A stretch of DNA of 64,000 nt from an uncultured virus (IMG/VR IMGVR_UViG_3300024264_000021) (taxonomy: Duplodnaviria; Heunggongvirae; Uroviricota; Caudoviricetes): IMG/VR virus record IMGVR_UViG_3300024264_000021, positions 1 to 64,000 of that record. The stretch is one strand, 5' to 3'. Positions 1,889 to 59,809 of the stretch are shown in pieces (position 1 is the first letter of the stretch; each line of letters opens with the position of its first letter). The notes beneath the pieces were generated by a model. The model did not search any database. It saw only the letters and a program-made list of their open reading frames with translations, and was not told the DNA's origin. Made by a program: the position numbers and the translations under genes.

Positions 1889-3730
1889 ATGTCAAAAATT
1901 CCATCAGAAAATATCAGCGAATTAGATTTTTTAACAATTAGAAAAAATTTAATAGACTATGTTAAGAACAGTTCAGAATTTAAAGATTATGATTTTGAAG
2001 CATCTGGCTTGAACTTTGTTGTTGATTTATTATCATATAATACACAATATCAATCTTATTATTTAAATCAAGTAGCAAGTGAATTATTTTTAGATACAGC
2101 ACAAAAAAGAAAAAATGCTGCATCAATAGCAAAGCAAATAGGATATTTATCAAATGCAAAAACTGCATCTAAAGCTGAAATAAATTTTAGACTTACTGGA
2201 AATTTATCTGCTAATTATACAAAAAATATATTAGCAGGAACTAAGTTCTTAGGTAAAACAGCCAATGGAAATTTGTATCCATTTATTAGTGAAACTTCTA
2301 TTGTTTTAGCAAATAGTAATCAATTCACATCAAATATAACACTCACTCAAGGCACTTTAATATCAGAAGAAATAGTTGTAAATAATTTATTATTAGAAAA
2401 TAAATTTGAAATTTCTAGTAAAGATATAGATTTAACATACCTTACAGTACATGTTAGAGAAAATGAACTTGAACGATTGCGCACAAAATACAACAGAGTA
2501 TTTGATATTACATTACTTACAGAAGATTCCGAAATATTTTACATAGAACAAAATTATAATGGAAAATATCAAATAATTTTTGGAGATGGAATTTTAGGAA
2601 AAATTATTAAAAATAATAATGTAATTGAATTAAATTATTTGGTTACTTCAGGTGAAGATGCTAATGAGTGTGTAACTTTTGATATTGAAAATAAAAACGA
2701 CTTTGTTAACACGTTTTTAATAGAAACTATTCAATTTTCTTCACAAGGAGAAGATGAAGAAAATGCCGATGATATAAGAAATAATGCAAGAAAATTATAT
2801 TTCAGTCAAAATCGCACAGTCACTGAAAAAGATTATCAAATTATTTTGATGAAATATTTTCCTTTCATAGAATCAATTTCTGTTTGGGGTGGAGAAAAGA
2901 ATACTCCTCCGTTGTATGGTAGTGTATTTTGTGCGATTAAACCAAAAAATAGAGCATTGTTATCTAATTATGAAATAGATTACATAAAGTCAAGACTTGA
3001 CCAATTAAATGTAATTACCATACTACCAAGAATTGTTAATCCCGAATATACTTATATTAAAATTAATGCTAATGTAGTTTATGATTCCTTAGACATTAAT
3101 ATGAATCAAATAGAAATTGTAGATAATGTGAAGAATGTTATATTTGATTATTCTAAAAATAATTTATTAAAATTTTATAGTAATTTTCAATTAGCAAATA
3201 TTACTAAACTTGTAGATGATATAAGTCAATATTTCATGGGTTCATATTTAACTATAAATTTATACAAAAAAAGAAATATTGAAGTTGGGATTGGAGTTTA
3301 TTATAATATAAATTTTAATAACAAGATTAAAAAAGGTTCTTTAACTGCAAGTAGATTTGATTATATTGATAATAATAATAATTTAATATCAAATTGTTAT
3401 CTAAAAGAAAATTCAACATATACAGGCGTTGATATAGTTTTCACAATAAACGTATCCGGTTCAGACGTAGAATTTACACTAAAAGAAAATATAGGTAAAA
3501 TAGATTATGATTCTGGCATTTTTATATTAGAAGGATTTTCACCAACATATATAAGAGAAGATTCATCAGAAATGACATTTGAAATTCAATGTGATGAATT
3601 TATTATTATACCATCTAAAGAACAAATTCTAACAATTTCTATTGATGACATTTATATAACACCTTCTGCATTTATAGATAGGTCATCAACTTCTTCTAAT
3701 TTAGCAAAAGCGGAGTTATTTGATACATGA
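1889..3730 (+). CDS. gp6: T4-like baseplate wedge subunit gp6
   Basis: ELDF..IRKNL, FKDYDFEASGL, DLLSYNT, ELFLDTAQ, FGDGILGK, QNRTVT.KDY, SVWGGE and GKIDYDSG motifs. Confidence 0.95.
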   Translation: MSKIPSENISELDFLTIRKNLIDYVKNSSEFKDYDFEASGLNFVVDLLSYNTQYQSYYLNQVASELFLDTAQKRKNAASIAKQIGYLSNAKTASKAEINFRLTGNLSANYTKNILAGTKFLGKTANGNLYPFISETSIVLANSNQFTSNITLTQGTLISEEIVVNNLLLENKFEISSKDIDLTYLTVHVRENELERLRTKYNRVFDITLLTEDSEIFYIEQNYNGKYQIIFGDGILGKIIKNNNVIELNYLVTSGEDANECVTFDIENKNDFVNTFLIETIQFSSQGEDEENADDIRNNARKLYFSQNRTVTEKDYQIILMKYFPFIESISVWGGEKNTPPLYGSVFCAIKPKNRALLSNYEIDYIKSRLDQLNVITILPRIVNPEYTYIKINANVVYDSLDINMNQIEIVDNVKNVIFDYSKNNLLKFYSNFQLANITKLVDDISQYFMGSYLTINLYKKRNIEVGIGVYYNINFNNKIKKGSLTASRFDYIDNNNNLISNCYLKENSTYTGVDIVFTINVSGSDVEFTLKENIGKIDYDSGIFILEGFSPTYIREDSSEMTFEIQCDEFIIIPSKEQILTISIDDIYITPSAFIDRSSTSSNLAKAELFDT

Positions 3731-6700
3731 CAACTCCTAAAGAATTGGTTGAAAGTCATATTCCAAATTATTTTTTAGAGCAATATCCTCACTTTGTGAA
3801 GTTTATTGAGGAATATTATAATTTTTTAGAATCATCAGTAATACTTCTTACAGATAATAAAAAATTATCCGTGGGTGACATCATATATGGTTCTCTGTCT
3901 AAAGCAAAAGCCATTGTAAAAATAGTTACTAAAGATAGAGTATATTTTGATTATGAAACAGAAACGAATAATTTTTATAGAAATGAATTATTAGTAAATG
4001 GTATTAGCGGTGAAATATATTTTATTAAAAAATTATATAAGAATATACATCAATATGCTCAGGATATAGAGGAAAATACTAATTACGAAACCGCACTCAC
4101 AGTCTTTCAGAAATACTTTAAAAAGAATGTTTCTCTTGATCATAGTATTTTTCGTAGGTTAGACCCAAATATTCTTACCAAAAAAATATTAGATTATTAT
4201 AAAAACAAAGATACTGAAAATTCTTACTATTGGTTTTTTAGAATATTCTTTGATGATATTATAGAATTATATTATCCGAAAGTAGATATACTGAGACTTT
4301 CTGATAGTGGTTATTACGAACAAAATTTAATACAAATTGAATATAATTCTAGCATAAGTAAATTTAATCAAACTCGCATTTATGCACCTAAATCAAAAGC
4401 ATCTGCTATATGTCGTGACATCATAACTAAAAATCAAAATAACACCACAAAGGCCTTTCTTGATTTAGTTTACATTAATGGAACTTTTAAAGAAAATGAA
4501 ATTATAGTAGGATATGATATTACCACAGGATTAGAAGCAGTAAAAGGTGTAATAAAAAATTCAATTACTGGCTTAAAAATAACAGATGGTGGTATTGGTC
4601 ATAAAGTCGGTGATATGTTTAATTATGGTGATGGTAGAGCAGAAATTACAAAACTTAAAAAACATTCTATTACTAATATAAAAATAAATGACCCTGGTTT
4701 ATGCTATCGTGTGGGTGACCCGATTGTTTTTGACAATGCATTTACAAATGTAGAATATACAGCAAGTGCGTATGTTTCAGAAATTGAAGTAAATCCAACT
4801 CTTACTACTTATTTCAATTCTTTTTACAATATATTAAAAAATAGACCAGTATCTTTTTATGAGGATGAAACATTACTAGATGAAGTTTATGAAAATTCCA
4901 TATTGTTTAGAGATGCTACTCCATTAAAAGAATTACCCAGTGATGTTGTTACTGATTTTCAAATGGGTGGTATAAAAGAAATTACATTTGATGATTCCGG
5001 ATTAGGATATGAATTTGCTCCACCTGTTGTTGCAAAAAATCCTTTACCACAAGCAGAGTTATTGAACTATTTTGATGTTATATTTGATAATAACGAAGCA
5101 AATACTGCATATATTCAGAATGATACTTTAGTTTATATGAAAGGTGGCACAAGTACACCTGGAGATTTTAATGAAGCTATTTGTATTGGAGATGTAACTC
5201 TAGATGCTGATGAAGAACAAATATATTTGAGTGACTTGGATATACTCAGTGAAGACGTAGAAGTTAAAAGATTTATAACACTAAGGTCAGTAAAAGATTT
5301 AGAAACGGATACTTTTGTTGAAATTGAATTAGGACAAAATGAAAGATTTGATAACAATCAAATAAAATTAGATACAACTCTAAATGATTTCAGTGAGATA
5401 GGGTTGCCCTTTGGCACAACTTTAAATTTAGAAATAAAAGATTTAATAAAGATTAATCCTCTTGCAAATAGTGCTAAGTTGGAAAGTGTTTTAGGTGATG
5501 GTGTAGCTCAGATTAAAACACTTCAAATGGGTTTAATGACTAAATCAGATGATGTATTTGAATTTATTCACAATCCAGAAGAAAGAGTGTTTAATCAAGA
5601 TGATATCGCACACGGTTTGAAATCAGAATATGAATATGAAGAAGGGTTGTTCATTGATTCTTTTGATTCTTTCTTAGACAACAGAAGTAAATTATCATCA
5701 AACAAATATATTCATGATGGTTATTATTATCAAAATTATTCATATGAAATACGTACTAAAATACCAGCAAGTTTAATAGAACCTTTACTTTTAGATGAAT
5801 TACATCCTGCAGGATTTTTACATTTTATAAGAAATAAATTTGAACTTGAACTTGACTTTAGAATAAAAACACATGAATTGCATGAAATAGAAATAGACAG
5901 CCGTGGCTACATAATTGCTGAAATATTTGAGCATATAGAAGTAGAAAGATTAAATTTTGCAGATGCAACTATTGGTGATGTTATTAATCAAATAGAATTA
6001 GAAAATGAATTTATTCACAATGAGGAGATTGCAACATCTGAATATCCAGAAATAGAAGTAAATGCAATAGCACCGATTTTTGAAGGATTTCGTTTTTTCA
6101 TAGAAGATATTATATCAAAACCTAGTGAAAATTCATTTAGAGATTTTGATGATTATGGAAAAACAAATGAGAAAAATTCAATTATCACTGATACAAGACT
6201 ATATGATGGTATTGTAGCCGTACAATCTTTTGTGAAAATTATAAATGTTGAAGATGAAGCAAACTGGATTGCTGATGTAATTGGATATAGAAAAAATGCA
6301 ATTGGTTCTTTAGATGCAGATAGAACAATTTATAATTTTAGAGTAAGAGTAGAACGTGTATTTGAACATGTGCCAGATATTGCAAAGGGTGGATATATTG
6401 TAGTAAGAGATCCATTTACCGATTTATATGAACCAAGATTTAGTTCTGATTTACAACAATTTAGCAACGCAGAAATAGAATTTTCTGATACAGAAAGAAA
6501 TGAATATCTACCATTAGTTTCAGGAAATACATTATCCGGCAAAGGTTCTTATTTACCAAATGCAGAAATACTTACAAGAGATTATGGTTGGGTAACTTTT
6601 GAAAATCTAGAACCCTATATGCATGTTGCTAATGTGAAAGAAGATGGTGTTATAGTTTGGCAATTGCCAGATAGTATAGCAACAAGAGAATATAATGGAA

Positions 6701-9700
6701 TAATGCATCAGTATACAGATCATTCAAGTGTGTCTATAACAGTTTCTCCAGACCAAGAATTAGCTTTAGTTACATCAAATAAAATAATTAAAGGACGAAA
6801 ACTATCATCAAAAACAAAACCACCAACAGAACTAGACTTTTTAGCAGTACCTGATGAAACATTAGCCGGTACGGGTAAAAGAGCAATAATGGAATTGAGA
6901 GATATTGATAAAGAAATAGATAAGATTGAAGTTCCATACACAGGATTATTATACTGTCTGACATTGAAGAATAATCAAGATACAATTAAAGTTCCTTTTG
7001 AAGTAGATGAAGGTATATTAGAAGTAATTAGTTGGCAATCATTTATTGAAAATAATTATACTTTACCAAAAGTAACGAAGATAGAAAAAACATTCATTAA
7101 TGTAGATTATGAAAATGTAGCCATAGACCTTGAAAGTTATAGTATAATGCAACCAAGGTCAAATACAATAATATTTGACTATAATACAGTAGATTCAACC
7201 CCTTATCCGATAGTAAATCCTTCGGAAATTTTTTTTTTAACTTCAGCGGAAACACAGCCAACAACACAACCCTCACCCCAAGGGCCGTTGACAGTGGAAC
7301 CCCTACGGACGACTTTCCAGAATAGTGATGTAATTACAGATGAAGTAGATGTAGTATTAACATTAGCTTATCAGCAAGAATTCAAAACTGTATTAGATAC
7401 ATTTGAACATAAATTAACTGAACGACCGACAACATTTACTTCATTTTCTATTAATATAAAAGACTTTTTATTCTTTGAAAGTACAAGCACATTATCCAAT
7501 GACTCTTTTACTGATACTGCAATACGCTCAGTAACAGATGTTCCCCTCCATGTTGTTATTAATATTGATGAACAAATATTACCACTTTCTATTCAATCAT
7601 CTGATGAAGAAAATAATAGTGCGGTATTTTTAAATATTGAGTCTACTGCTGCAAAGTTTGATATTCAGCCGGCTATGGATAAACCCAAAAATAGAATATC
7701 AACACTGTCTTTTGAAAACAGAATACCTGCAATACGTGGAAAAATACCTAAGATTTTCCGAGAAGCGATTCTAATAAATTCAGATGATGATAAGAAAATA
7801 ACACAAATATCTATTGCAGATATTGAAACAGTTCTTTGTCCTGACCATCAATTTGAACCAAAAGCAAAAGTTGTAATTTTAAATTTCTTTGAGGAGTTTG
7901 AAAAGAATAGAGTAAGTTCTCTAATATTATTAGGAAGTATAAATGCGCATCCAGGAACAGAATCTGGATTACCAAGTGTTGAAGTAGAAGATGATAAAAT
8001 TTTAAATTATCACCACATAGATTCATTACAATTAAAAGAACCTGATTTAAGATATGTAATTACAAGATTAAATTTTGCAGATTCAAGTAGTGATACTGAC
8101 CCTGTTATATATTATACCTTTGTGAATTCTACAAACAAAAGCGCATATGGTATAAAACCATCTTCTTATTTTGATTCGGATGAATTAACTTTTGATAGTT
8201 ATGATAATTTTACATTTGATGAAGATAGTTTACTACCTGAAAGAAAATTATTTCAAGAAAGCGAAAATTTTAATGTTGATACTCTAGTTACTTTTGAAAA
8301 TATTGAAGACTTGGATAACTTAAAACCAATATACAACGAAGATAATTTTATAATTTGGTCAACCATAGTTGCTAATGATGTAAATTCTGGTGATATTGAT
8401 TTTATGAGTGTGCATGTGAATCACATTAATAATTTTGCATTTGAACCTTTCAGTTTAGACCCATCATTACCTAGCAAATCAATTCAACAAGACTTTACCG
8501 TAATACCCCCACCTGTTCATAAATTTGTTGGTATATCAGAATCTGGATTTGATCCATTGTCCACTCTAGTAAGTGGAGGTGATAACCCTGCAGTAACTGA
8601 TGTAACACCTTTAGAAACAGATGTAAATCGTAAAATATTTGTTGATGTTTTAAATAGAAATTTATTTTTTAATTTTGATGAAAAAATTGTTGATTACAAA
8701 AACAATTTTATAGTTTATAATCTCCATAAAAAATATAAACCATATTTGGGTGACACAATGCCCGCCACAAGCGCATTGTCAGAACCCTTTTTGTATACAA
8801 GTCCTAAATCAAAGGATTTATCTACAGTATTAGACAAAGAAACTATTTATTTTGCCAACACTGTTATTTTAGATTCTTCTACGGAAGTCATTAGTAAAAC
8901 AGATATAGAAAATCATTTTGAGATAGAAGATAGAAGAAAATACATAACATTAGATACTCAATTTGAGAATTGGAAAAGGCAATTTATTGCTGGATATCTT
9001 CCTGTTAAATTTTCAGATTATGTTTTAGATAAAATACCAAGTGCATTTATTCAAGATGCGATTATTATAAGTAAACGGACAGCAAATGAGGATGTAAGTC
9101 CTCTCGTACATCCAAACAGCATATTCTCAGATGCAGCGCCTCCAGCTATTTATTTTGAATTAGAACTTGCAGAAGCACAAACCGAAATAAAAATTCCTAT
9201 TATAATTGAAGATAGAAATAAGTATGTAGATTTAGGAGATATCATTTTACCATGGACTCCTATTTTAATTAAGGATTATTCTAGAATAAAAATGGATGAT
9301 TATATTCTGGATAAATTACCTTCAGTAAGAATAGATGGTACTTACATAAGAAATGAGAGACAATCAAATACAGAATTACTCACTAATTTTGAATTGTTTT
9401 CATCTCTTTATGGAAACACAACATTTTTAGATTCTAGTTTTGATATCATGGGTGAAATAGAAGAAGACATTGAAAACAATATTATTGATAGAAATAAACT
9501 TATAATTAGAAGTGATTATATCTACCCATATGAATTTACAATCATAGAACATTTTATGAGACCATGGGTTATACGTGAATATAGTCAAGATACATTACCA
9601 TCTGTAACTGCATATCTTGAAGTAGTGCCGATTACAGATTATGTTGAAAATATGGAAGTCATTAATATTGATAATAGAATATTAACAGGAAATACAACAT

Positions 9701-11712
9701 TCTTAGATGCTACACAAGATATTGATTTTGAATTTGAAATTAAAAACGAAAATTTAATACTTGATAGACATAAAACATTTTCATTAAGTGATATTATAGG
9801 ACCCTGGACAGATAATACTCTCTTTGGTTTCTATAGACCTTTACAATTAAAGTATTATAATTTAAGTGATATTCCTACTGTAAGAGTTCATTCTGAGCCT
9901 GAAATTACATATAATCCAATTGTTCTTGCAAATACAGAAATAGTTTCGTTCACAACATTATATGGAAACACGGCATTTGCGGACGCAACTCATGATGTAA
10001 CATTTGAATATGGATTTGAAGATGATACTATAATAGTTGATAGAAACAAAACTTTTGCAGAAGATAGAGTCATTAGTAGATGGGTGGATACAAAATTTTC
10101 TTTAGATATGATACCTAAGATTTTTGTGGATTTTGAAAGTGAGACTGTACCAACGGCTACTGTACTGAATGAACCAGAAATAACATACAATCCAAAAGTA
10201 CCTATTGATGTGAATATAGTTCCGTTTACAACATTATACGGTAACACAGCATTTGCAGATGCAACTACAGATATTTACTCTGTAATTGATGAATACGAAC
10301 ATAATCCCAAATTACTTGACAGAAATGTCACATTAAGTTATGAAGATAGAATTACTTCATACTTTAATAATTTTGTTGATGACTATTTACCGTTTAAACT
10401 CGTTCCTTATAATTTAGATTATATTCCAACAGTTTCTGTTCTAAATGAATTAGAATTCACATATAATCCTACTTTAGATTTAATACATACTGCAATTACA
10501 TCAAGTACTACTGTATATGATAAGCAAGCAACTATTTTAGATAATACAATAGCAACAGAAGAAGTTGTTCTTGAATTTGAAAATCTTGTAGAATTTATTT
10601 CTGATAAATCTAAAATTGGAAGAAAAGATTTTATTATTAATAAACAAAATGAAATTATTGGTAATTATTTAAATAGTCAAATAGCCGAACACACATATGA
10701 TACTGTGAAGACTGTAGATGTAGGTTTGACAAACAATGATGAAATAGAATATGTCATTATATCTGATATGGAAGAATTAACTAGTGATGAAATATCTATA
10801 TTGTATAATGATAAGCATACTTTCATAGATTCTACATCTTTTATGGACTCTACAGAAATTGAATTTTTTAGTGAATCTTATGTCTATAATGAAAATAGTG
10901 CAATATCGCTAAATGATAGAATAACAGAATCCTTTTTAGAAAAGCAAATAAGACCAAAAGTTCTTACTAAATTAAGATATGATATTATTAATACAATACC
11001 TATTGTATCTCCAAAAACTCAATATTCTATCACAACTGTTGATATACAAGATGGAAAATCTAAATTTAAAGAAACTGTATCAAATATTATTGGTACTGAA
11101 AAGATCCTTGATGGTACTATAGAATTAATTCAAAATGAAAATCTAACAAAAATATTTAATGAAATTGAAGATAGAAATTTTTTATTTCAATTAGATAAAA
11201 AAGTTGATACTTTTTTAAAAGAAGAAATAACAGAAAAAGTTCCTTTAAAATTAAAATATTATATTTTAGAATCTAATATACCTACAGTTCAAGCAGAATT
11301 ATTTGCAAAAGAAATTTTTGATTATTCATTTTCAACAACTCCAGATGATATATCTTTAGTAGATTTTGAGAAAATTTTAAGTTTTGATTCAGAAGGAAAT
11401 ATAAATAACACCTTTGGATTTAAAGAGAGTCAAATAAACACTATAAATAATGGAATAACGAATGATAATTTTTTATTAAATACTGTGATTGGACCTTTTA
11501 CTGATGACTATATAAGATTTGAAATTGAAAAACATTTAAAAAGAAAAGGTGATGATAAACAGACGTATTTACATGCCACATTAAAAATGAATTATACTGT
11601 GAGTGAGGTTTATACTTGGAATATTAGTGCGCTAAATACATTTGAAACAGAATATAATGATCCGAACATAAATAGAAAAGAGTTTTTAGAGACTGTACGA
11701 ATTGAAGTTTAA
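3727..11712 (+). CDS. gp7: Very large T4 gp7-like baseplate wedge initiator with Hint-like insertion and C-terminal repeats
   Basis: N-terminal P.YF.E.YP.FVKFIEEYYNFLE, YYK.K.TE.SY..FFRIFF, YYPK.DILRLSD and YIHDGYYYQNYSYEIR...LHPAG motifs; lies between gp6 and gp8. Confidence 0.85.
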   Translation: MTTPKELVESHIPNYFLEQYPHFVKFIEEYYNFLESSVILLTDNKKLSVGDIIYGSLSKAKAIVKIVTKDRVYFDYETETNNFYRNELLVNGISGEIYFIKKLYKNIHQYAQDIEENTNYETALTVFQKYFKKNVSLDHSIFRRLDPNILTKKILDYYKNKDTENSYYWFFRIFFDDIIELYYPKVDILRLSDSGYYEQNLIQIEYNSSISKFNQTRIYAPKSKASAICRDIITKNQNNTTKAFLDLVYINGTFKENEIIVGYDITTGLEAVKGVIKNSITGLKITDGGIGHKVGDMFNYGDGRAEITKLKKHSITNIKINDPGLCYRVGDPIVFDNAFTNVEYTASAYVSEIEVNPTLTTYFNSFYNILKNRPVSFYEDETLLDEVYENSILFRDATPLKELPSDVVTDFQMGGIKEITFDDSGLGYEFAPPVVAKNPLPQAELLNYFDVIFDNNEANTAYIQNDTLVYMKGGTSTPGDFNEAICIGDVTLDADEEQIYLSDLDILSEDVEVKRFITLRSVKDLETDTFVEIELGQNERFDNNQIKLDTTLNDFSEIGLPFGTTLNLEIKDLIKINPLANSAKLESVLGDGVAQIKTLQMGLMTKSDDVFEFIHNPEERVFNQDDIAHGLKSEYEYEEGLFIDSFDSFLDNRSKLSSNKYIHDGYYYQNYSYEIRTKIPASLIEPLLLDELHPAGFLHFIRNKFELELDFRIKTHELHEIEIDSRGYIIAEIFEHIEVERLNFADATIGDVINQIELENEFIHNEEIATSEYPEIEVNAIAPIFEGFRFFIEDIISKPSENSFRDFDDYGKTNEKNSIITDTRLYDGIVAVQSFVKIINVEDEANWIADVIGYRKNAIGSLDADRTIYNFRVRVERVFEHVPDIAKGGYIVVRDPFTDLYEPRFSSDLQQFSNAEIEFSDTERNEYLPLVSGNTLSGKGSYLPNAEILTRDYGWVTFENLEPYMHVANVKEDGVIVWQLPDSIATREYNGIMHQYTDHSSVSITVSPDQELALVTSNKIIKGRKLSSKTKPPTELDFLAVPDETLAGTGKRAIMELRDIDKEIDKIEVPYTGLLYCLTLKNNQDTIKVPFEVDEGILEVISWQSFIENNYTLPKVTKIEKTFINVDYENVAIDLESYSIMQPRSNTIIFDYNTVDSTPYPIVNPSEIFFLTSAETQPTTQPSPQGPLTVEPLRTTFQNSDVITDEVDVVLTLAYQQEFKTVLDTFEHKLTERPTTFTSFSINIKDFLFFESTSTLSNDSFTDTAIRSVTDVPLHVVINIDEQILPLSIQSSDEENNSAVFLNIESTAAKFDIQPAMDKPKNRISTLSFENRIPAIRGKIPKIFREAILINSDDDKKITQISIADIETVLCPDHQFEPKAKVVILNFFEEFEKNRVSSLILLGSINAHPGTESGLPSVEVEDDKILNYHHIDSLQLKEPDLRYVITRLNFADSSSDTDPVIYYTFVNSTNKSAYGIKPSSYFDSDELTFDSYDNFTFDEDSLLPERKLFQESENFNVDTLVTFENIEDLDNLKPIYNEDNFIIWSTIVANDVNSGDIDFMSVHVNHINNFAFEPFSLDPSLPSKSIQQDFTVIPPPVHKFVGISESGFDPLSTLVSGGDNPAVTDVTPLETDVNRKIFVDVLNRNLFFNFDEKIVDYKNNFIVYNLHKKYKPYLGDTMPATSALSEPFLYTSPKSKDLSTVLDKETIYFANTVILDSSTEVISKTDIENHFEIEDRRKYITLDTQFENWKRQFIAGYLPVKFSDYVLDKIPSAFIQDAIIISKRTANEDVSPLVHPNSIFSDAAPPAIYFELELAEAQTEIKIPIIIEDRNKYVDLGDIILPWTPILIKDYSRIKMDDYILDKLPSVRIDGTYIRNERQSNTELLTNFELFSSLYGNTTFLDSSFDIMGEIEEDIENNIIDRNKLIIRSDYIYPYEFTIIEHFMRPWVIREYSQDTLPSVTAYLEVVPITDYVENMEVINIDNRILTGNTTFLDATQDIDFEFEIKNENLILDRHKTFSLSDIIGPWTDNTLFGFYRPLQLKYYNLSDIPTVRVHSEPEITYNPIVLANTEIVSFTTLYGNTAFADATHDVTFEYGFEDDTIIVDRNKTFAEDRVISRWVDTKFSLDMIPKIFVDFESETVPTATVLNEPEITYNPKVPIDVNIVPFTTLYGNTAFADATTDIYSVIDEYEHNPKLLDRNVTLSYEDRITSYFNNFVDDYLPFKLVPYNLDYIPTVSVLNELEFTYNPTLDLIHTAITSSTTVYDKQATILDNTIATEEVVLEFENLVEFISDKSKIGRKDFIINKQNEIIGNYLNSQIAEHTYDTVKTVDVGLTNNDEIEYVIISDMEELTSDEISILYNDKHTFIDSTSFMDSTEIEFFSESYVYNENSAISLNDRITESFLEKQIRPKVLTKLRYDIINTIPIVSPKTQYSITTVDIQDGKSKFKETVSNIIGTEKILDGTIELIQNENLTKIFNEIEDRNFLFQLDKKVDTFLKEEITEKVPLKLKYYILESNIPTVQAELFAKEIFDYSFSTTPDDISLVDFEKILSFDSEGNINNTFGFKESQINTINNGITNDNFLLNTVIGPFTDDYIRFEIEKHLKRKGDDKQTYLHATLKMNYTVSEVYTWNISALNTFETEYNDPNINRKEFLETVRIEV
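6547..7038 (+). other. Intein-like Hint domain (about 164 aa, aa 941-1104) inside gp7
   Basis: SYLPNAEILTRDYGWVTFENL (block A-like), YNGIMHQY..SITVSPDQEL (block B-like), EVPYTGLLYCLTL (block F-like), ends ..VISWQ|S. Confidence 0.7.
7229..7328 (+). other. Candidate -1 frameshift / slippage cassette in gp7
   Basis: T10 run at 7229-7238 containing in-frame U-UUU-UUA; GC-rich 7240-7320; -1 frame open for 28 codons, then TAG TGA at 7323-7328. Confidence 0.55.
8830..11400 (+). repeat. About nine degenerate ~92-aa tandem protein repeats in the gp7 C-terminal half
   Basis: GNT(T/A)F.D motifs start at 9412, 9688, 9964 and 10240 (exact 276-nt period); DR(N/H)K motifs at 9211, 9487, 9763, 10039; boundaries approximate. 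Confidence 0.85.
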
Positions 11713-11740: not shown

Positions 11741-14080
11741 ATGCCCGCACTAGTGCATAATACTTTTCGTGTTAGTAATGCAAAACAATTTAAAGAAAGT
11801 TTTGAAGAAAAATCAGAACATGGTGTTGGTGGATATATACGAATAGAAGACATGACTCCTGGACTAGATGGTGATTTGAGTGTCACATCTGCTCCTTCAG
11901 TTAATAACCTAAATGCTATACCTTACTATGCATTGGATGACCAAATGTATTTGTTTATAGGTAGAGTATCTCCGTGGAATCCTTCTGATACACCGGATGG
12001 TTCTATTGATCCGAATTTAAACGAAAACAATCCTCCATTTCCAGTTGATAGTGTAAAAGATTCACACTTTAATCACTGGGATGATATGATTGCTGCTAAG
12101 AAAGTTTCCGATAGCGAAGTATCACACGTTATTAAGCGTGAAAGAACTATAGAGATCCAATCAGGCCTTAGGAACTGGACTTTGGGTACAAGATATGATG
12201 GTTACGATGACCGTTCTGCTTTCTTATTTTATGATGACATGTTGGTTCACACTGTGAATAGAAGATTTAGAATTTACAAGTGTTTAAAGCAAGGTGTTGG
12301 TAAGTTTAGAAAAGTTGAAAATTTCAATGGTGTTAACGGCAATACTGTTTACCTGTGGGATCACAAATCATATCAAGAACCTTTAAACTTTGTAACTGAT
12401 GGTGGCATCAGTGAAGATTATATGGTTTTGGGTGATGACGATAATGACGGATATCAATGGAAATATTACTATACTATTGATGCTGGAGAAGCATTAAAAT
12501 TTGTTACCACTTCTTATATTCCGGTAAGAAGAATACGTAAAGAAAATGGAACAATTGAAAATGATTTCTCAGATCAATATACAATTGAAACAACTGCTAT
12601 TCCAGGCGGTATCTTAAATGTTACAGTAGATAAGTATGCAGTTGAAACCAATGATTCAACTGTTGAGGGATATGAAATGCAGGGTGGAGATGGATATTAT
12701 CAATTTGGTTCAAGTTCTGCACAAGTAAATTACGATGATTCTCAAAATTCATTGACATTCCAAATAGTATGGAATACTGTTAACAATTGTGATTTTCCAG
12801 ATCCAGAAGCAGGAACAAATGCTGGACTAGATTTAAGTTCTAACACTCACTACAATATGTTTAGTTTTGCAAATAATTTAAGTCATGCTGGCGGAACATG
12901 GACGGCCACTCCTGATGCAGGACTAGTAGCCATGGGTCATAAAGGATTAGATACTTGGTTAGATTATGGTGTTGTAATTAAATCTTCTACTGATAGTACT
13001 CTAAATGGAGATGCATTCAAAAGATATGTATTCCCAATCAGCGGTGTACAATTAACAAGTGGTTCTGACTTTACAGATGGCACAATTGAATTTACAATTG
13101 ATTCTACAACCATAGAAAGTTTGATAGGAACAAGTGTTACTGGTGTTGCCGGTCTTCCTGCAGCAACACAGATAGTAAATGAGGATGCTGTAGTTGAAAT
13201 TCATCCAAGAGTAAAAATTGAAGCGAATCATCAAAGTACTACGACAACAGATCCTATTGATGGATTTAATGCATATGGAATTGTTGAACCATTGTTTAAT
13301 ACAACAACACCTGGATATCATAGAGAACGACCGGGTAGAGTACTTGATGTAAGAGTAACAAATCCTGGTAAATATCATTATCGTGTAGATAGTGCTATGG
13401 TTACTGGTACTGCAAATAATTATTCTACCGCTACAGTACATGCACATATTCCACCCGTAGGAGGACATGGATTTGATGCTGTAGAAGAATTAGGTGGTCA
13501 TAATGTTATGATTAATGCTAGATTTGAAGGTACAGAATCTGATGAATTTACAGTTGGTAACGAATTCAGAAAGATTGGTATTCTTAAAAATCCAAGAACC
13601 TATTCTTCAGATCAAACAAGACTCTGGATGAATCCAAGTGCATATACAGAATTGTTTAGAGGTTATAAAACTGACCAATGTTATAGAATTAATTTAACAT
13701 CTGCTTCTTTAGGAAGTTTGAATGGTAATACATTAAACTTTGAACCTGATATGGATGTAGGAATTTATGCAAATTCAACAGGTCTATTAGTTGCTACTGC
13801 TAGAATTGTAGATCATGATGTATTCTCTAAGAGAATCCGTGTAATTAAGCCAAGAAAAGATTTTGGTACACTTTTAGCAAGTGGTGATTTTAAAATTAAA
13901 TCACTAGGTTATCATTCTGCTGATGCTCAAAATGTAGAGGCATTTACTGTTACTACTAATACAGCAAATACACCAGGCATGTTACCTGGTTCTGGTAAAA
14001 TTCTTTACGTTGAGAACAGAAGTATGGTATCTCGTTCACAAAATCAAACTGAAGACTTGAAGATTAGTATTCAGTTCTGA
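11741..14080 (+). CDS. gp8: T4-like baseplate wedge subunit gp8, enlarged
   Basis: FRV.NAKQF.ESF, YLFIGR..PW, WDDMIAAKKV, YKCL, DGYQWKYYYTI, PP.GGHG.DA.EELG and SGKILYVENR....RS..QTEDLKI.IQF motifs. Confidence 0.9.
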   Translation: MPALVHNTFRVSNAKQFKESFEEKSEHGVGGYIRIEDMTPGLDGDLSVTSAPSVNNLNAIPYYALDDQMYLFIGRVSPWNPSDTPDGSIDPNLNENNPPFPVDSVKDSHFNHWDDMIAAKKVSDSEVSHVIKRERTIEIQSGLRNWTLGTRYDGYDDRSAFLFYDDMLVHTVNRRFRIYKCLKQGVGKFRKVENFNGVNGNTVYLWDHKSYQEPLNFVTDGGISEDYMVLGDDDNDGYQWKYYYTIDAGEALKFVTTSYIPVRRIRKENGTIENDFSDQYTIETTAIPGGILNVTVDKYAVETNDSTVEGYEMQGGDGYYQFGSSSAQVNYDDSQNSLTFQIVWNTVNNCDFPDPEAGTNAGLDLSSNTHYNMFSFANNLSHAGGTWTATPDAGLVAMGHKGLDTWLDYGVVIKSSTDSTLNGDAFKRYVFPISGVQLTSGSDFTDGTIEFTIDSTTIESLIGTSVTGVAGLPAATQIVNEDAVVEIHPRVKIEANHQSTTTTDPIDGFNAYGIVEPLFNTTTPGYHRERPGRVLDVRVTNPGKYHYRVDSAMVTGTANNYSTATVHAHIPPVGGHGFDAVEELGGHNVMINARFEGTESDEFTVGNEFRKIGILKNPRTYSSDQTRLWMNPSAYTELFRGYKTDQCYRINLTSASLGSLNGNTLNFEPDMDVGIYANSTGLLVATARIVDHDVFSKRIRVIKPRKDFGTLLASGDFKIKSLGYHSADAQNVEAFTVTTNTANTPGMLPGSGKILYVENRSMVSRSQNQTEDLKISIQF

Positions 14081-14155: not shown

Positions 14156-17059
14156 TTATTTTACCATAACCGTGCTATACCACTGATTGTCTAGATAAAC
14201 AGCATCAATATCGTAAGTATTATAAGTGTTTGCTACTTGCATTTCTAAATTACCAGACATATTCATTGAAGAGACTGTATTTCCATTTATCACTATATTG
14301 CTTAAAGTATAAGGTGTTGTATTTTGCAACACATGCACTTTTGCATGAACCGTTACACCTTCCAACTCAGACACTCGATTTACTATTAAGAAAAAATCAC
14401 CATATGGTTTTTTGAAAACAACATTATCAGTTTCATGATAATCAATAGTTGCATTTAAATCATCAGTTAAAACTTCAGAAGCATTTTTACCAGGAGTTTC
14501 TGAATATATGATTTCATCATAATCATTAATATTATAATAATAGCTATTGTTTCCATTACTATCTACTTCAGGAGGTAGTAATGTACCTACATCAGATGTT
14601 TCATATCCTGCAAAAGTGTTTAGATAACTTAAATGGTCATTTAATGTTAATTCTGATAGAGTAGTTTTTGCTGGATTATAATTAAATGTTGTATTCACAT
14701 ATGCAATCGCATTAGGTCCGTTACCTCCCAACGAAGAAATTATAAATGGTACTGCATTGACATCTCTTTTAAGATATTTTACAACACCTGAAGAGGCATC
14801 CAATTTTATGTTATCACCAATCCACAATGTAGCTGAAGATAAAAATAAATCTTTAAACTTATTAGCAGGCGAACCTAGACTGTATATTGAATCTACTGTA
14901 GGTACAATATCTCCGGATATGTCTGTTTTACCTAAAGTTTTATTTGTTAATGTTTGAGTGGCTGTATTACCAATTAATTCCTGATTTCCAAAATCAGGAA
15001 ACACTAGTGTATTTGCAGTTGCTTTATTAACAATATAATTTATCTTTGCATAATCAGAGTCAATATGATCACTTACAACATTACTTGTTGTTATGATTGG
15101 ATTGCTTATTGCATTTATACTACCATCTTCAATTTTTAATTGAATATTACCATTCGCAAATATTGCAGTTGTTGTAGAAGAAATAGTTTCACCTGCGGGA
15201 GATGCTCCTCTATCACCGAATAATATGCCTGTGCTTGTTGCATCTTTTTCATTATATGCTTCAATAGCTGAAGTATAAACATATGGAGTAACAATTGATC
15301 CCTGTAATCTCTCAGAAGATGTATTTTGTGAAATAGAGTCTAGATAATTTAAATTATTGACACTTATAAATTGACAAAAAACATTATCAACTTCTATTTC
15401 TCTAAAATAAGCAGCAATAGAACCATTAGTCAATCCATTTTCTATTGCTGCTGTTGTAGCAATAGAATAGCTGTTAATATTTGCAGTTGTAAAAGAATCA
15501 AAAATTCCATTTACAGTTACACCATTTTCAAGAGTTAATGATGTAAATTTAGAATCAATTGGTATTTGACCATCTGTTAATAAATTGTATACAGCATTCG
15601 CAGTAACTAAAGTATTGTCATCAATAGTTGAAAAGTCTGTAGATATAGAATTTATTGATACATTAGGATCACCACCAGGAAATTGAAGTGTATTTGCTGA
15701 GAGTGGTACTGAAGGTAATGTCGTATTATTACCTGATATCAAATCATAAATGGCTACTGTTGTTGCTAAAGTATTTTGATTTATATTTGTATTGTTTATT
15801 GCACTAACAACATTAGTTACAGTGTTTCCATTTAATATAAATGTTTGTGTTTCTGTACTATTAAACACTGAATTTATAGAAACATCACCATCTGTTATAA
15901 GATTATAAATTGCATTTGATGTTACTAAAGTTTCATCATTTATTGTTGAAAAATCTGTGTGAACATTATTAACTACTAAATCATCAAAAATCATTGTTTG
16001 CATATCTACTACATTTGCAGTGATATAATTAGCAGTTAGGTTATTTATTGATAGTGTGTTTGTAACATTAATATTATTTGCAATTAATAATACATCAACA
16101 TTTGCAGTATTTGCGTGTATATCATCAGCAGTTAGGCTTTCGGTAAAATTACCTGTATTCGCTATAAGATTTATTGTATGTGTTCCACTAGTGAGAACAT
16201 TAAAAATTCTATCGTTAACGGCTTTTGTAGTTGGTAATAAATCATTATTAATAAACATAAAATTGTGTACAATATCCGTCACTTTATTGCCAGATGATAA
16301 TTCTAAGCTTACACCTTCTAGTGTAGTGATATTATTATCTGGTCCACCAACTAGATTATATACAGCAAGTGCTGTTACTAAACTTGTATCATCAGGTGGT
16401 GTATTTGTAAAGTTAGTAACAATTTTATCAATATTAGGACCACTTCCTAATTTTAAGTTATTAAACACTGTATTTAAACTTATTGCTCCATCAGTAAGTA
16501 AATTGTATACAGCATTTGTTGTAGCAACAGTATTACTATCAATAGTACTAAAATCATCTGCTATTGCATTAATAACAAGACCGGTACCAAATTGAAGTGT
16601 GTCTGTATTAAATGCAATAGGTACAGTTCTGATTCCGTTTAATAAATTATAAACTGCATTTGAAGTTACTAGAGTTTTGTTATCTAATGGACCGAAAGAT
16701 GTGGAAATAGTATTTACATATAATCCACTTGTTCCAAAAGTTAATGTCTTGGCTTTTACAGGAACAATTACTGAAGTTGCGCCCGAAACTAAATCATATA
16801 CAGATTTAGTTGTACATAAAGACGTATCATTATTTTGTGTAAAATCTGTTCTGATTTCTTGTATTACAGGTCCAGATTTTAGCTGTAAATCAAAGACTTT
16901 TAACTCATTAAATTCTAGCGAACCGTTAGCATCGTATCTTGTTAATGTATTTGGTGTGCCATTTGCTGTTGAATTATTATTTTCAGCTATAACATCATTT
17001 ATTGTATTCAACCATTCGCCAAATGTATTAGCTAATAATAATTGGGGAATATAACTCAT
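14156..17059 (-). CDS. Tail fibre / virion structural protein with internal repeats
   Basis: N-terminal ANTFGEW...IN; nine copies of a (T)DF..I...TLVT.NAVYNL-type repeat; TQTLTNKTL and GDIVP..DS.YSLGS...KFKDLFLS fibre-type motifs; Asn/Thr rich. Confidence 0.75.
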   Translation of the reverse strand: MSYIPQLLLANTFGEWLNTINDVIAENNNSTANGTPNTLTRYDANGSLEFNELKVFDLQLKSGPVIQEIRTDFTQNNDTSLCTTKSVYDLVSGATSVIVPVKAKTLTFGTSGLYVNTISTSFGPLDNKTLVTSNAVYNLLNGIRTVPIAFNTDTLQFGTGLVINAIADDFSTIDSNTVATTNAVYNLLTDGAISLNTVFNNLKLGSGPNIDKIVTNFTNTPPDDTSLVTALAVYNLVGGPDNNITTLEGVSLELSSGNKVTDIVHNFMFINNDLLPTTKAVNDRIFNVLTSGTHTINLIANTGNFTESLTADDIHANTANVDVLLIANNINVTNTLSINNLTANYITANVVDMQTMIFDDLVVNNVHTDFSTINDETLVTSNAIYNLITDGDVSINSVFNSTETQTFILNGNTVTNVVSAINNTNINQNTLATTVAIYDLISGNNTTLPSVPLSANTLQFPGGDPNVSINSISTDFSTIDDNTLVTANAVYNLLTDGQIPIDSKFTSLTLENGVTVNGIFDSFTTANINSYSIATTAAIENGLTNGSIAAYFREIEVDNVFCQFISVNNLNYLDSISQNTSSERLQGSIVTPYVYTSAIEAYNEKDATSTGILFGDRGASPAGETISSTTTAIFANGNIQLKIEDGSINAISNPIITTSNVVSDHIDSDYAKINYIVNKATANTLVFPDFGNQELIGNTATQTLTNKTLGKTDISGDIVPTVDSIYSLGSPANKFKDLFLSSATLWIGDNIKLDASSGVVKYLKRDVNAVPFIISSLGGNGPNAIAYVNTTFNYNPAKTTLSELTLNDHLSYLNTFAGYETSDVGTLLPPEVDSNGNNSYYYNINDYDEIIYSETPGKNASEVLTDDLNATIDYHETDNVVFKKPYGDFFLIVNRVSELEGVTVHAKVHVLQNTTPYTLSNIVINGNTVSSMNMSGNLEMQVANTYNTYDIDAVYLDNQWYSTVMVK

Positions 17060-52732: not shown

Positions 52733-52783
52733 TAGAAAATCTCCTTAATTTGTTTTTTTTTAATTTTTTTTTCAAAAAAATAT

Positions 52784-55404: not shown

Positions 55405-55656
55405 ATGAAACCATTTATTATACACGATTCCGATATAAAAGTCAATGTTAGTATTCGTTACTCTTCTAATTTAGAACAAAATGAAGTACAAATAATTTCA
55501 AAAAATAATGAATGTTTTATTTTTCCCGAAGAAATTGTAAAAAAAAATATTAGCAAAAACACTTTAAAATTATTAAATGTAGATGATTTTGGAATTTTAA
55601 ATAGTTTCTCTGTAATGAACACTTTTAACCAACACAAGAAAAAAAAATATGAATAA
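55405..55656 (+). CDS. Hypothetical protein
   Basis: 83-aa ORF after the promoter. Confidence 0.55.
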   Translation: MKPFIIHDSDIKVNVSIRYSSNLEQNEVQIISKNNECFIFPEEIVKKNISKNTLKLLNVDDFGILNSFSVMNTFNQHKKKKYE

Positions 55657-59141: not shown

Positions 59142-59275
59142 TACTTGACTTCTTATAATTTATTAGCCGCTTAATTTATATAAAAAAATATCAATGTATT
59201 TTTTATGAGATTGTAATTTTTTATAAATGTTAATCTTCTTTTATAGTTGAAGATTTTTAATTGAAAGGAAATGAC

Positions 59276-59809
59276 ATGTTAAATCCGATTGTTAGTGTTG
59301 TTATGGGAAGTAAAAGTGATTGGGATATCATGAAACCCGCATGTGACACACTCCAAGAATATAATATTCCCCACGAAAAAAAAATTCTATCCGCACATAG
59401 AACACCTTTGAAAATGGCTACATATGCTAAAAATGCTATTCAAAATGGATTTAAAGTAATTATTGCCGGTGCTGGTGGAGCAGCACATTTACCAGGAATG
59501 TTTGCTGCATTAACTACAATTCCTGTAATCGGTGTTCCAGTAAGAACCTCTACTGCTGAAGGATTGGATAGTTTATTATCTATTGTGCAAATGCCAAGAG
59601 GTGTGCCTGTCGCAACAGTAGCGATTAACAATTCTAAAAATGCGGCTCTTTTATCTCTTCAAATATTAGCACTAAACAATACTACACTTCATCAAAAATT
59701 AATTTCCGAAAGAGTAAAGCAAGAAAAAGATATAGACATTATTAATTCTGAATTTAATACTTATTATGAAGATGGAAATGTTACTGTAGTTGATAATAAT
59801 ATATTTTAA
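59276..59809 (+). CDS. purE: N5-CAIR mutase (class I PurE)
   Basis: [30 protein letters not shown] and [19 protein letters not shown] motifs; AAAGGA before the ATG at 59276. Confidence 0.97.

Follow-up and report, generated by a model that had tools for sequence, protein, structure and literature searches.

A conserved T10 tract in the giant gp7-position baseplate gene of an uncultured marine phage is a candidate slippage site for short and long protein isoforms

INTRODUCTION

Phages are known to recode several kinds of structural gene, namely those for tail assembly chaperones, capsid proteins and tail tubes, with the frameshifts of T7 10A/10B, Listeria phage PSA and the SPP1 tail tube as examples. 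Here we analyze positions 1 to 64,000 (referred to as the window) of IMG/VR record IMGVR_UViG_3300024264_000021, an uncultured virus of the Caudoviricetes, in which a giant gene at the gp7 position of a T4-like baseplate module carries a run of ten thymines (T10) at positions 7229 to 7238 of the + strand. Our comparisons suggest that slippage at this run would give the phage two forms of one baseplate wedge protein, one of about 1199 amino acids (aa) and one of 2661 aa.

The closest described system is dnaX of Thermus, in which transcriptional slippage gives a truncated product at about 1:1 and stops lie in both other frames, according to the excerpts of a review used here (PMC5009743). T. thermophilus dnaX (tau/gamma) resembles the locus described below in having a long A/T homopolymer within one open reading frame (ORF), in that the unshifted product is long and the shifted product truncated with a common N terminus, and in needing no RNA structure. 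It differs in that our locus is a phage baseplate gene, and in that the predicted -1 route adds a conserved tail of 28 to 30 aa where dnaX stops nearly at once. The -1 frameshift of Escherichia coli dnaX likewise truncates rather than extends the protein, but it relies on A AAA AAG with an upstream Shine-Dalgarno (SD) element and a downstream hairpin, whereas our locus has a weaker heptamer and neither a conserved SD-like element nor a hairpin. Shigella spa13 and mxiE are similar in that an A/T run lets the host RNA polymerase reach another frame (PMC5009743; reference list of PMC2853527), with 25 to 30% shifted product reported from spa13 (PMC5009743), and different in that slippage there leads to the longer, functional form. 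The lambda G/GT tail assembly chaperone provides, in the same excerpts, a case of one gene of a phage virion module giving two proteins with a common N terminus at a set ratio (PMC5009743). In lambda G/GT, T7 10A/10B, PSA and SPP1 the shift makes a longer, minor product and none of the genes encodes a baseplate wedge protein, whereas the shifted product predicted here is shorter.

A full-text literature search found no published report of recoding in a gp7 or baseplate wedge gene. The word "baseplate" is absent from the portion of the review examined (PMC5009743), and an article in which transcriptional slippage, phage and baseplate occur together (PMC2853527) deals, in the portion seen, with a methyltransferase; another such article (PMC13585406) appears to concern tape-measure repeats. 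Neither recoding of a baseplate wedge protein nor, among phage structural genes, a shift towards the shorter form is reported in the literature searched.

RESULTS AND DISCUSSION

The longest homopolymer and the GC maximum of the window adjoin in one gene

The original prediction described the codons ATT TTT TTT TTA, followed by a GC-rich stretch and an open -1 frame of 28 codons ending in TAG TGA, and all of these are present. The four codons read at 7228 to 7239 within the 2661-aa gene. The T10 that they contain is the longest homopolymer of the window and the only one of at least 10, the runner-up runs being of 9, and it is long enough for slippage by RNA polymerase, which needs an A/T homopolymer of about 9 or more. 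The end of the run forms an in-frame heptamer, T TTT TTA (7233 to 7239), which is T TTT TTC in the relatives L008 and L016; an in-frame X XXY YYZ heptamer is thus found in all three lineages for which DNA is available.

The -1 frame is open from 7239 for 28 codons (7239 to 7322) and closes with TAG TGA at 7323 to 7328. Its peptide in the window is NFSGNTANNTTLTPRAVDSGTPTDDFPE, and the tail peptide of the predicted short form is AVDSGTPTDDFPE; a shift at the T10 predicts a product of 1171 + 28 = 1199 aa. Loss of one T leads into the +1 frame, where a TAA stop is reached immediately (7238 to 7240), and in L008 and L016 the same frame stops after three codons (SVH and SVL, respectively). Because the -1 and +1 frames both stop early, any slip would yield a truncated gp7. 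Frame 0 is open past the run, and in this frame the alignment with the homologous proteins P0003 and P0004 extends to the C terminus, so that the long protein is both genuine and conserved.

The sequence behind the run (7240 to 7320) has a GC content of 56.8%, in agreement with the predicted value of about 57%, against 29.9% for the window. This is the highest value for any 81 nucleotides (nt) of the window, and only two sliding windows reach it. The longest homopolymer and the GC maximum, each an extreme of the window, are thus immediate neighbors.

Reinitiation downstream of the -1 stop was considered and rejected: the ATG at 7328 belongs to the +1 frame, and the first Met of frame 0 lies about 120 codons further on, past conserved sequence. 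As a separate observation on homopolymers, the second-longest run within the long ORFs of the window is an A9 (59376 to 59384) inside ORF 59261 to 59809 (182 aa, TTG start); none of the long ORFs considered contains the T9 runs at 52753 to 52761 and 52764 to 52772 or the two A9 runs that start at 55539 and 55639.

The T10 is conserved in three lineages

Relatives with DNA fall into three lineages: that of the window (window, L001 to L003 and L017, of which L001 to L003 are 99.9% identical over 13.8 kb), that of L008 (L008, L018, L019 and L020, with proteins P0003 and P0004), and that of L016, a single 146.5-kb contig. A fourth lineage is represented by protein only, P0005, a 162-aa fragment with EIFFFNS that has no DNA in IMG/VR. 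A profile search of 1.84 billion representatives for further lineages returned just 5 proteins at E ≤ 0.001, and a search of IMG/VR with the L016 protein matched nothing besides L016 itself. Around the site, protein identity among the window, L008 and L016 lineages is 31 to 50%.

Every independent assembly (window, L001 to L003, L008, L016 and L017 to L020) has exactly ten T's in the same codon phase. The conservation that the original prediction had called for is thus seen in all three lineages with DNA, each having the T10, the GC-rich patch and a -1 ORF of 28 (window), 30 (L008) or 30 (L016) codons. The codon before the Phe-Phe pair is ATT, GTT or CTT depending on the lineage, always ending in TT although CTT makes up 15% of Leu codons, and the run ends in TTA in the window and in TTC in L008 and L016, TTC making up 18% of Phe codons. 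As the flanking codons vary yet the ten T's stay, a length of 10 is maintained in all three lineages, above the 7 bases needed for a ribosomal slip; such constancy of run length is expected of transcriptional slippage.

The -1 frame of the patch behaves as a coding frame

A check for constraint on the overlap had also been proposed, and the patch bears the signature of a translated -1 frame. The -1 peptides of L008 (QFTSTEGGQPSLRPRAIDSGGPSENQPPSP) and L016 (QFFSTKGKQPDLRPRAIDSGGPSPNFPPDP) have the motif L.PRA[VI]DSG.P in common with that of the window. When the three frames were compared by BLOSUM62 over 27 codons anchored at the T run, the window and L008 scored 57 in the -1 frame, 9 in frame 0 and -13 in the +1 frame, and the window and L016 scored 58, 1 and -14, respectively; the closer pair, L008 and L016, scored 106, 87 and 78. 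Elsewhere in the gene the -1 score reached the frame-0 score in none of 1289, 1246 and 1400 control windows, which were drawn from ungapped blocks and are thereby biased towards a well-conserved frame 0. When the aligned columns of the patch were shuffled, the -1 score came up to its observed value in 1 of 5000 trials for window and L008 and in 0 of 5000 for window and L016.

The distribution of mismatches points in the same direction. By codon position of the -1 frame (28 each), there are 13, 10 and 20 mismatches between the window and L008 and 12, 10 and 21 between the window and L016. The second position varies least, then the first, then the third, as in a coding frame; the patch is thus most variable at the third position of the -1 frame, which coincides with the second position of frame 0. 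Over the whole gene, the frame-0 mismatch rates are 0.44, 0.35 and 0.50 at positions 1, 2 and 3, the normal pattern. Sequence comparison thus indicates that the -1 frame of the patch is under selection as a coding frame. The alternative frames at the T10 end in defined products, one of them selected. Two details of the original prediction did not extend to the relatives: the GNT motif of the -1 peptide, taken as an echo of the repeats of the protein, occurs in the window lineage only, and the tandem stop TAG TGA, present as described in the window, is likewise limited to that lineage.

The composition of the patch is also unusual. Its GC content at third codon positions (GC3), 0.46, is the highest in the gene, against a genome GC3 of 0.179. 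Its codon choice ranks third in atypicality among 2634 windows of the gene, and 19 of 10,112 windows from 15 genes are at or below its value. The patch is also the GC maximum of the L008 locus (28.8 kb) and of the L016 locus (9.2 kb), though the frame-0 amino acids differ. We attribute the high GC, the high GC3 and the odd codons to the need to keep two overlapping frames open and coding against an AT-rich background. When synonymous codons were redrawn, using the codon usage of the window for all three lineages, a -1 frame as long as observed arose with P values of 0.29 (window), 0.0095 (L008) and 0.034 (L016).

No conserved RNA structure accompanies the run

A stimulatory structure 3' of the slip site had been proposed, including a pairing of CAGCGG with CCGTTG. 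The pairing occurs in the minimum-energy fold, but this fold is no better than those of shuffled sequences (z = +0.35; 124 of 200 shuffles fold at least as well). The downstream folds of L008 and L016 give z values of -0.70 and -1.05, and the consensus fold has 6 pairs at -2.96 kcal/mol. By single folds against shuffles and consensus folding, no downstream hairpin is conserved in the three lineages; pseudoknots were not searched for. The proposed structure is therefore not borne out. Upstream, only weak stems of 3 to 6 bp were found, no better than in shuffles, and an intragenic terminator was rejected, with 0 terminator-like sites in 6800 to 7800. An SD-like stimulator of a ribosomal -1 shift is expected 10 to 14 nt upstream of the slip site. 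The two lineages L008 and L016 have a GGAGGT some 18 nt before the heptamer, and the window lacks it.

A model for two isoforms by slippage

The original prediction had proposed isoforms of about 1199 and 2661 aa made at the T run, and sequence comparison, through conservation and selection on the -1 frame, favors this. Since the T10, the patch and the -1 ORF occur in all three lineages with DNA and the -1 frame has a coding signature, production of a short and a long isoform by slippage is the best reading of the locus. We consider it quite probable that the T10 is a real site of recoding at the RNA level. In our model, the T10 read unshifted would give the 2661-aa protein with its C-terminal repeat arm. 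RNA polymerase would slip on the tract in some rounds and leave mRNAs with U11 or U9. U11 would lead into the -1 frame, through the conserved tail of 28 to 30 residues to the stop, and give a gp7 of about 1199 aa; U9 would lead to an immediate stop in the window and to one within 3 codons in the relatives. Both isoforms may enter the wedge, with the arm on some of the six wedges, or one form may act in assembly alone.

For the mechanism we lean towards RNA polymerase slippage as the main route. We favor it over a ribosomal -1 shift because no conserved RNA structure was found, the full T10 is kept, Thermus dnaX and spa13 offer precedents and U UUU UUA is a weak heptamer. Homopolymer-driven slippage of the polymerase needs no RNA structure, and the absence of a conserved fold fits it. 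A programmed -1 ribosomal frameshift on U UUU UUA (U UUU UUC in the relatives), with the mRNA unchanged, would yield the same two isoforms, and the conserved -1 ORF and its peptide fit it equally well. The in-frame heptamer present in all three lineages is, in the review excerpts, that of HIV-1 (PMC5009743). The same excerpts describe U UUU UUA as far less shift-prone than A AAA AAG in E. coli (PMC5009743); the downstream folds are no better than those of shuffles, the SD-like GGAGGT is confined to two lineages at a distance of about 18 nt, and ten T's are conserved where the ribosome needs seven. As the main mechanism, a ribosomal shift is therefore a possibility that we regard as rather doubtful, and polymerase and ribosome may both contribute. 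Residue 1171 of the short form of the window is predicted to be Phe after polymerase slippage and Leu after a ribosomal shift. Because the junction residues are predicted to differ in this way, the T10 site offers a clean natural test between the two.

It is also conceivable that no recoding takes place, the T run following from a hydrophobic-Phe-Phe motif in an AT-rich genome, the patch being a linker or a nucleotide element, and the -1 frame a by-product of GC content. All homologs, P0003, P0004 and P0005 among them, keep E[IVL]FF[FL] at the protein level, frame 0 of the patch is Pro/Thr/Gln-rich and linker-like in the window, and the shifted product has not been observed. Against this, frame 0 is barely conserved in the patch (9 and 1, compared with 57 and 58 in a -1 frame with coding periodicity), GC richness is kept while the frame-0 amino acids change, the codon choice of frame 0 is near the most atypical of the gene, and no RNA fold explains the nucleotide conservation. 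We judge this explanation unlikely. A heritable poly-T switch at the DNA level, with T9, T10 and T11 subpopulations of phage each making one form, seems highly improbable to us. Homopolymers of 10 are prone to replication slippage, and the alternative frames would yield defined products. The phase variation suggested by the original prediction finds no counterpart in the assemblies, all of which carry T10 (window, L001 to L003, L017, L008, L018 to L020, L016 and a DNA contig of run X3), although minority variants are invisible in a consensus. Among 2465 candidates shorter than 1463 aa in a collection of 5.8 billion proteins, none matches aa 900 to 1200 as a split gene would. That no assembly splits the gene at the run is a weak argument against fixed T9 or T11 variants.

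Several observations weigh against slippage at the T10, or against the polymerase as its cause. DNA is available for only three lineages, two of which, L008 and L016, resemble each other closely in the patch (79% nucleotide identity). The Phe-Phe pair is conserved as protein and TTT makes up 82% of Phe codons, so much of the T run is expected anyway in an AT-rich genome; [FLIV]FF[FL] occurs once in 17,184 aa, at the T10 site. Taken alone, the window lineage has a -1 frame that is not unusual in its openness, as its P value of 0.29 indicates. Public sequencing data consisted of contigs from 24 runs, of which 3 RNA runs and 1 DNA run were examined. The RNA contigs (X17, X18 and X20) do not span 7202 to 7243, and contigs hide minority variants; the DNA contig of run X3 carries T10. 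Since the heptamer would also serve for a ribosomal slip, the two mechanisms cannot be told apart from the sequence by itself. Ten other giant homologs (1667 to 2372 aa; L041, L043, L045 to L047 and L049 to L053) have no homopolymer of at least 9, and three cultured relatives have none of at least 8 in the gene at the gp7 position. The slip device would therefore be clade-specific, and giant gene size alone does not entail a slip tract.

If the two isoforms are made, gene callers annotate just one of the two proteins that this widespread marine phage has in its virion, and the baseplate may hold mixed gp7 forms, with a bearing on adsorption and host range.

A second clade has an A10 run

A second clade of the giant gene encodes proteins of 3391 to 3401 aa where complete, about 35% identical to that of the window over the first ~1200 aa. 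All five contigs of this clade have an A10 run (CCA AAA AAA AAA TTC) at aa ~1537, located at 14605 to 14614 in L022 (= L009), 14602 in L010, 14611 in L023, 14590 in L024 and 7152 in L025. A11 would yield IL and then a stop, and A9 would yield NSLIA and then a stop. P0007 and P0008, known as proteins, likewise keep PKKKFFDS-type motifs. A stretch of 30 codons centered on the A10 ranks among the 2 to 6% most conserved windows, with 1 to 3 synonymous differences against about 6 to 8.5 expected. By BLASTP, only aa 1 to 1116 of the window protein and aa 1 to 1208 of L009 align; the A10 lies beyond the aligned part. The A10, with quick stops in both other frames, counts for the slippage reading of the T10.

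A tentative possibility, to which we give modest credence, is that a homopolymer slip switch sets baseplate composition in abundant marine T4-like phages, that a wedge protein of normal size with a conserved docking tail and a giant form with an arm are mixed in one six-fold baseplate bearing fewer than six arms, and that the device arose twice, with T10 and with A10. Polymerase slippage would in that case be a recurrent route to sub-stoichiometric virion parts.

The gene lies at the gp7 position of a baseplate module

The window is part of a 74-kb IMG/VR record with an estimated completeness of 41% and a GC content of 29.9%. The frame-0 ORF of the long isoform (3727 to 11712, + strand, 2661 aa) matches the Baseplate_wedge family PF23786 at aa 7 to 35 (E = 3e-8) and phrog_17744. 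Its neighbors are gp25 (1509 to 1886), gp6 (1889 to 3730) and gp8 (11741 to 14080), identified by Pfam PF04965, PF21379 and PF09215, respectively, and by PHROG baseplate wedge families. Given the order gp25-gp6-ORF-gp8 and the PF23786 match, the ORF occupies the gp7 position of a T4-like baseplate module, with the N-terminal wedge motif and the gene order of a T4-type gp7.

A nucleotide search of GenBank phages gave no match for the window. The closest cultured phages by protein, which include Pelagibacter phages Mosig and HTVC008M, Methylophilales phage Melnitz and Caulobacter phage Cr30, share 22 to 32% identity with the 2661-aa protein in parts of its first 450 residues. T4 gp7 is about 1030 aa long. 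The cultured Kyanoviridae Mosig, HTVC008M and Melnitz have the same order of gp25, gp6 and a gp7-position gene, with an N-terminal similarity of 22 to 26%, and their gp7-position proteins, at 874 to 1016 aa, are near the predicted short isoform of ~1199 aa. They differ in that this gene has no arm, no homopolymer of at least 8 and no GC-rich patch. Pelagimyophages are described, in the part of the source seen, as lacking T4 gp7 and having VrlC instead (PMC7029224). Mosig and HTVC008M each have, downstream of gp8, a distinct gene with the annotation VrlC; the Melnitz gene at that position is annotated as a hypothetical protein.

Positions 6200 to 8300 are completely covered (share 1.00) in 16 DNA runs of marine or seawater origin, which belong to 11 studies of 2014 to 2022; the record itself may derive from some of them. 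The phage appears to be widespread in seawater.

A Hint-like domain and a repeat arm flank the site

A Hint domain had been placed 65 codons before the run. The fold itself was recovered by structure prediction: the AlphaFold model is confident only at aa ~930 to 1080 (6511 to 6966, + strand; pLDDT 70 to 82), and Foldseek matches this part to inteins, BIL2 and Hedgehog Hint (E = 7e-6; TM 0.71, normalized to the target). There were 12 matches at E ≤ 0.001, and the top 12 listed are all inteins, BIL or Hedgehog Hint. No Hint domain was found in the 2661-aa protein by sequence searches against Pfam and PDB, and the model places the end of the domain about 88 codons ahead of the run rather than 65. 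Catalytic positions were placed in the aligned sequences by the intein block motifs, which we take to be a first Cys or Ser, TxxH and a terminal HN. The first-nucleophile position is Tyr in all five sequences that cover it, and the place of TxxH is held by SPDQ, APYQ or TPRQ; the catalytic residues of a Hint domain are apparently absent among the aligned sequences that cover these positions. From the model, this is probably a structural, non-splicing Hint domain.

The C-terminal arm, part of the long isoform only (7329 to 11709, + strand), bears repeated GNT.F.DA units, adds about 1460 aa, and is kept in frame 0 in P0003 and P0004. The idea that the arm exists elsewhere as a separate gene was not upheld: tblastn with aa 1200 to 2661 gave no match in 31 distant loci (E ≤ 1e-4). 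The loci of Mosig, Melnitz and HTVC008M contain no arm at E ≤ 0.01, the VrlC genes being incomplete in those loci. By these sequence searches, the arm is without a detectable relative outside the T10 clade among the loci searched. Four of its units, about 92 aa apart, lie at ~9390 to 10300 (aa ~1890 to 2190) with the motif L[YT]GNT[TA]F[LA]D[AS], and the homologs hold more copies.

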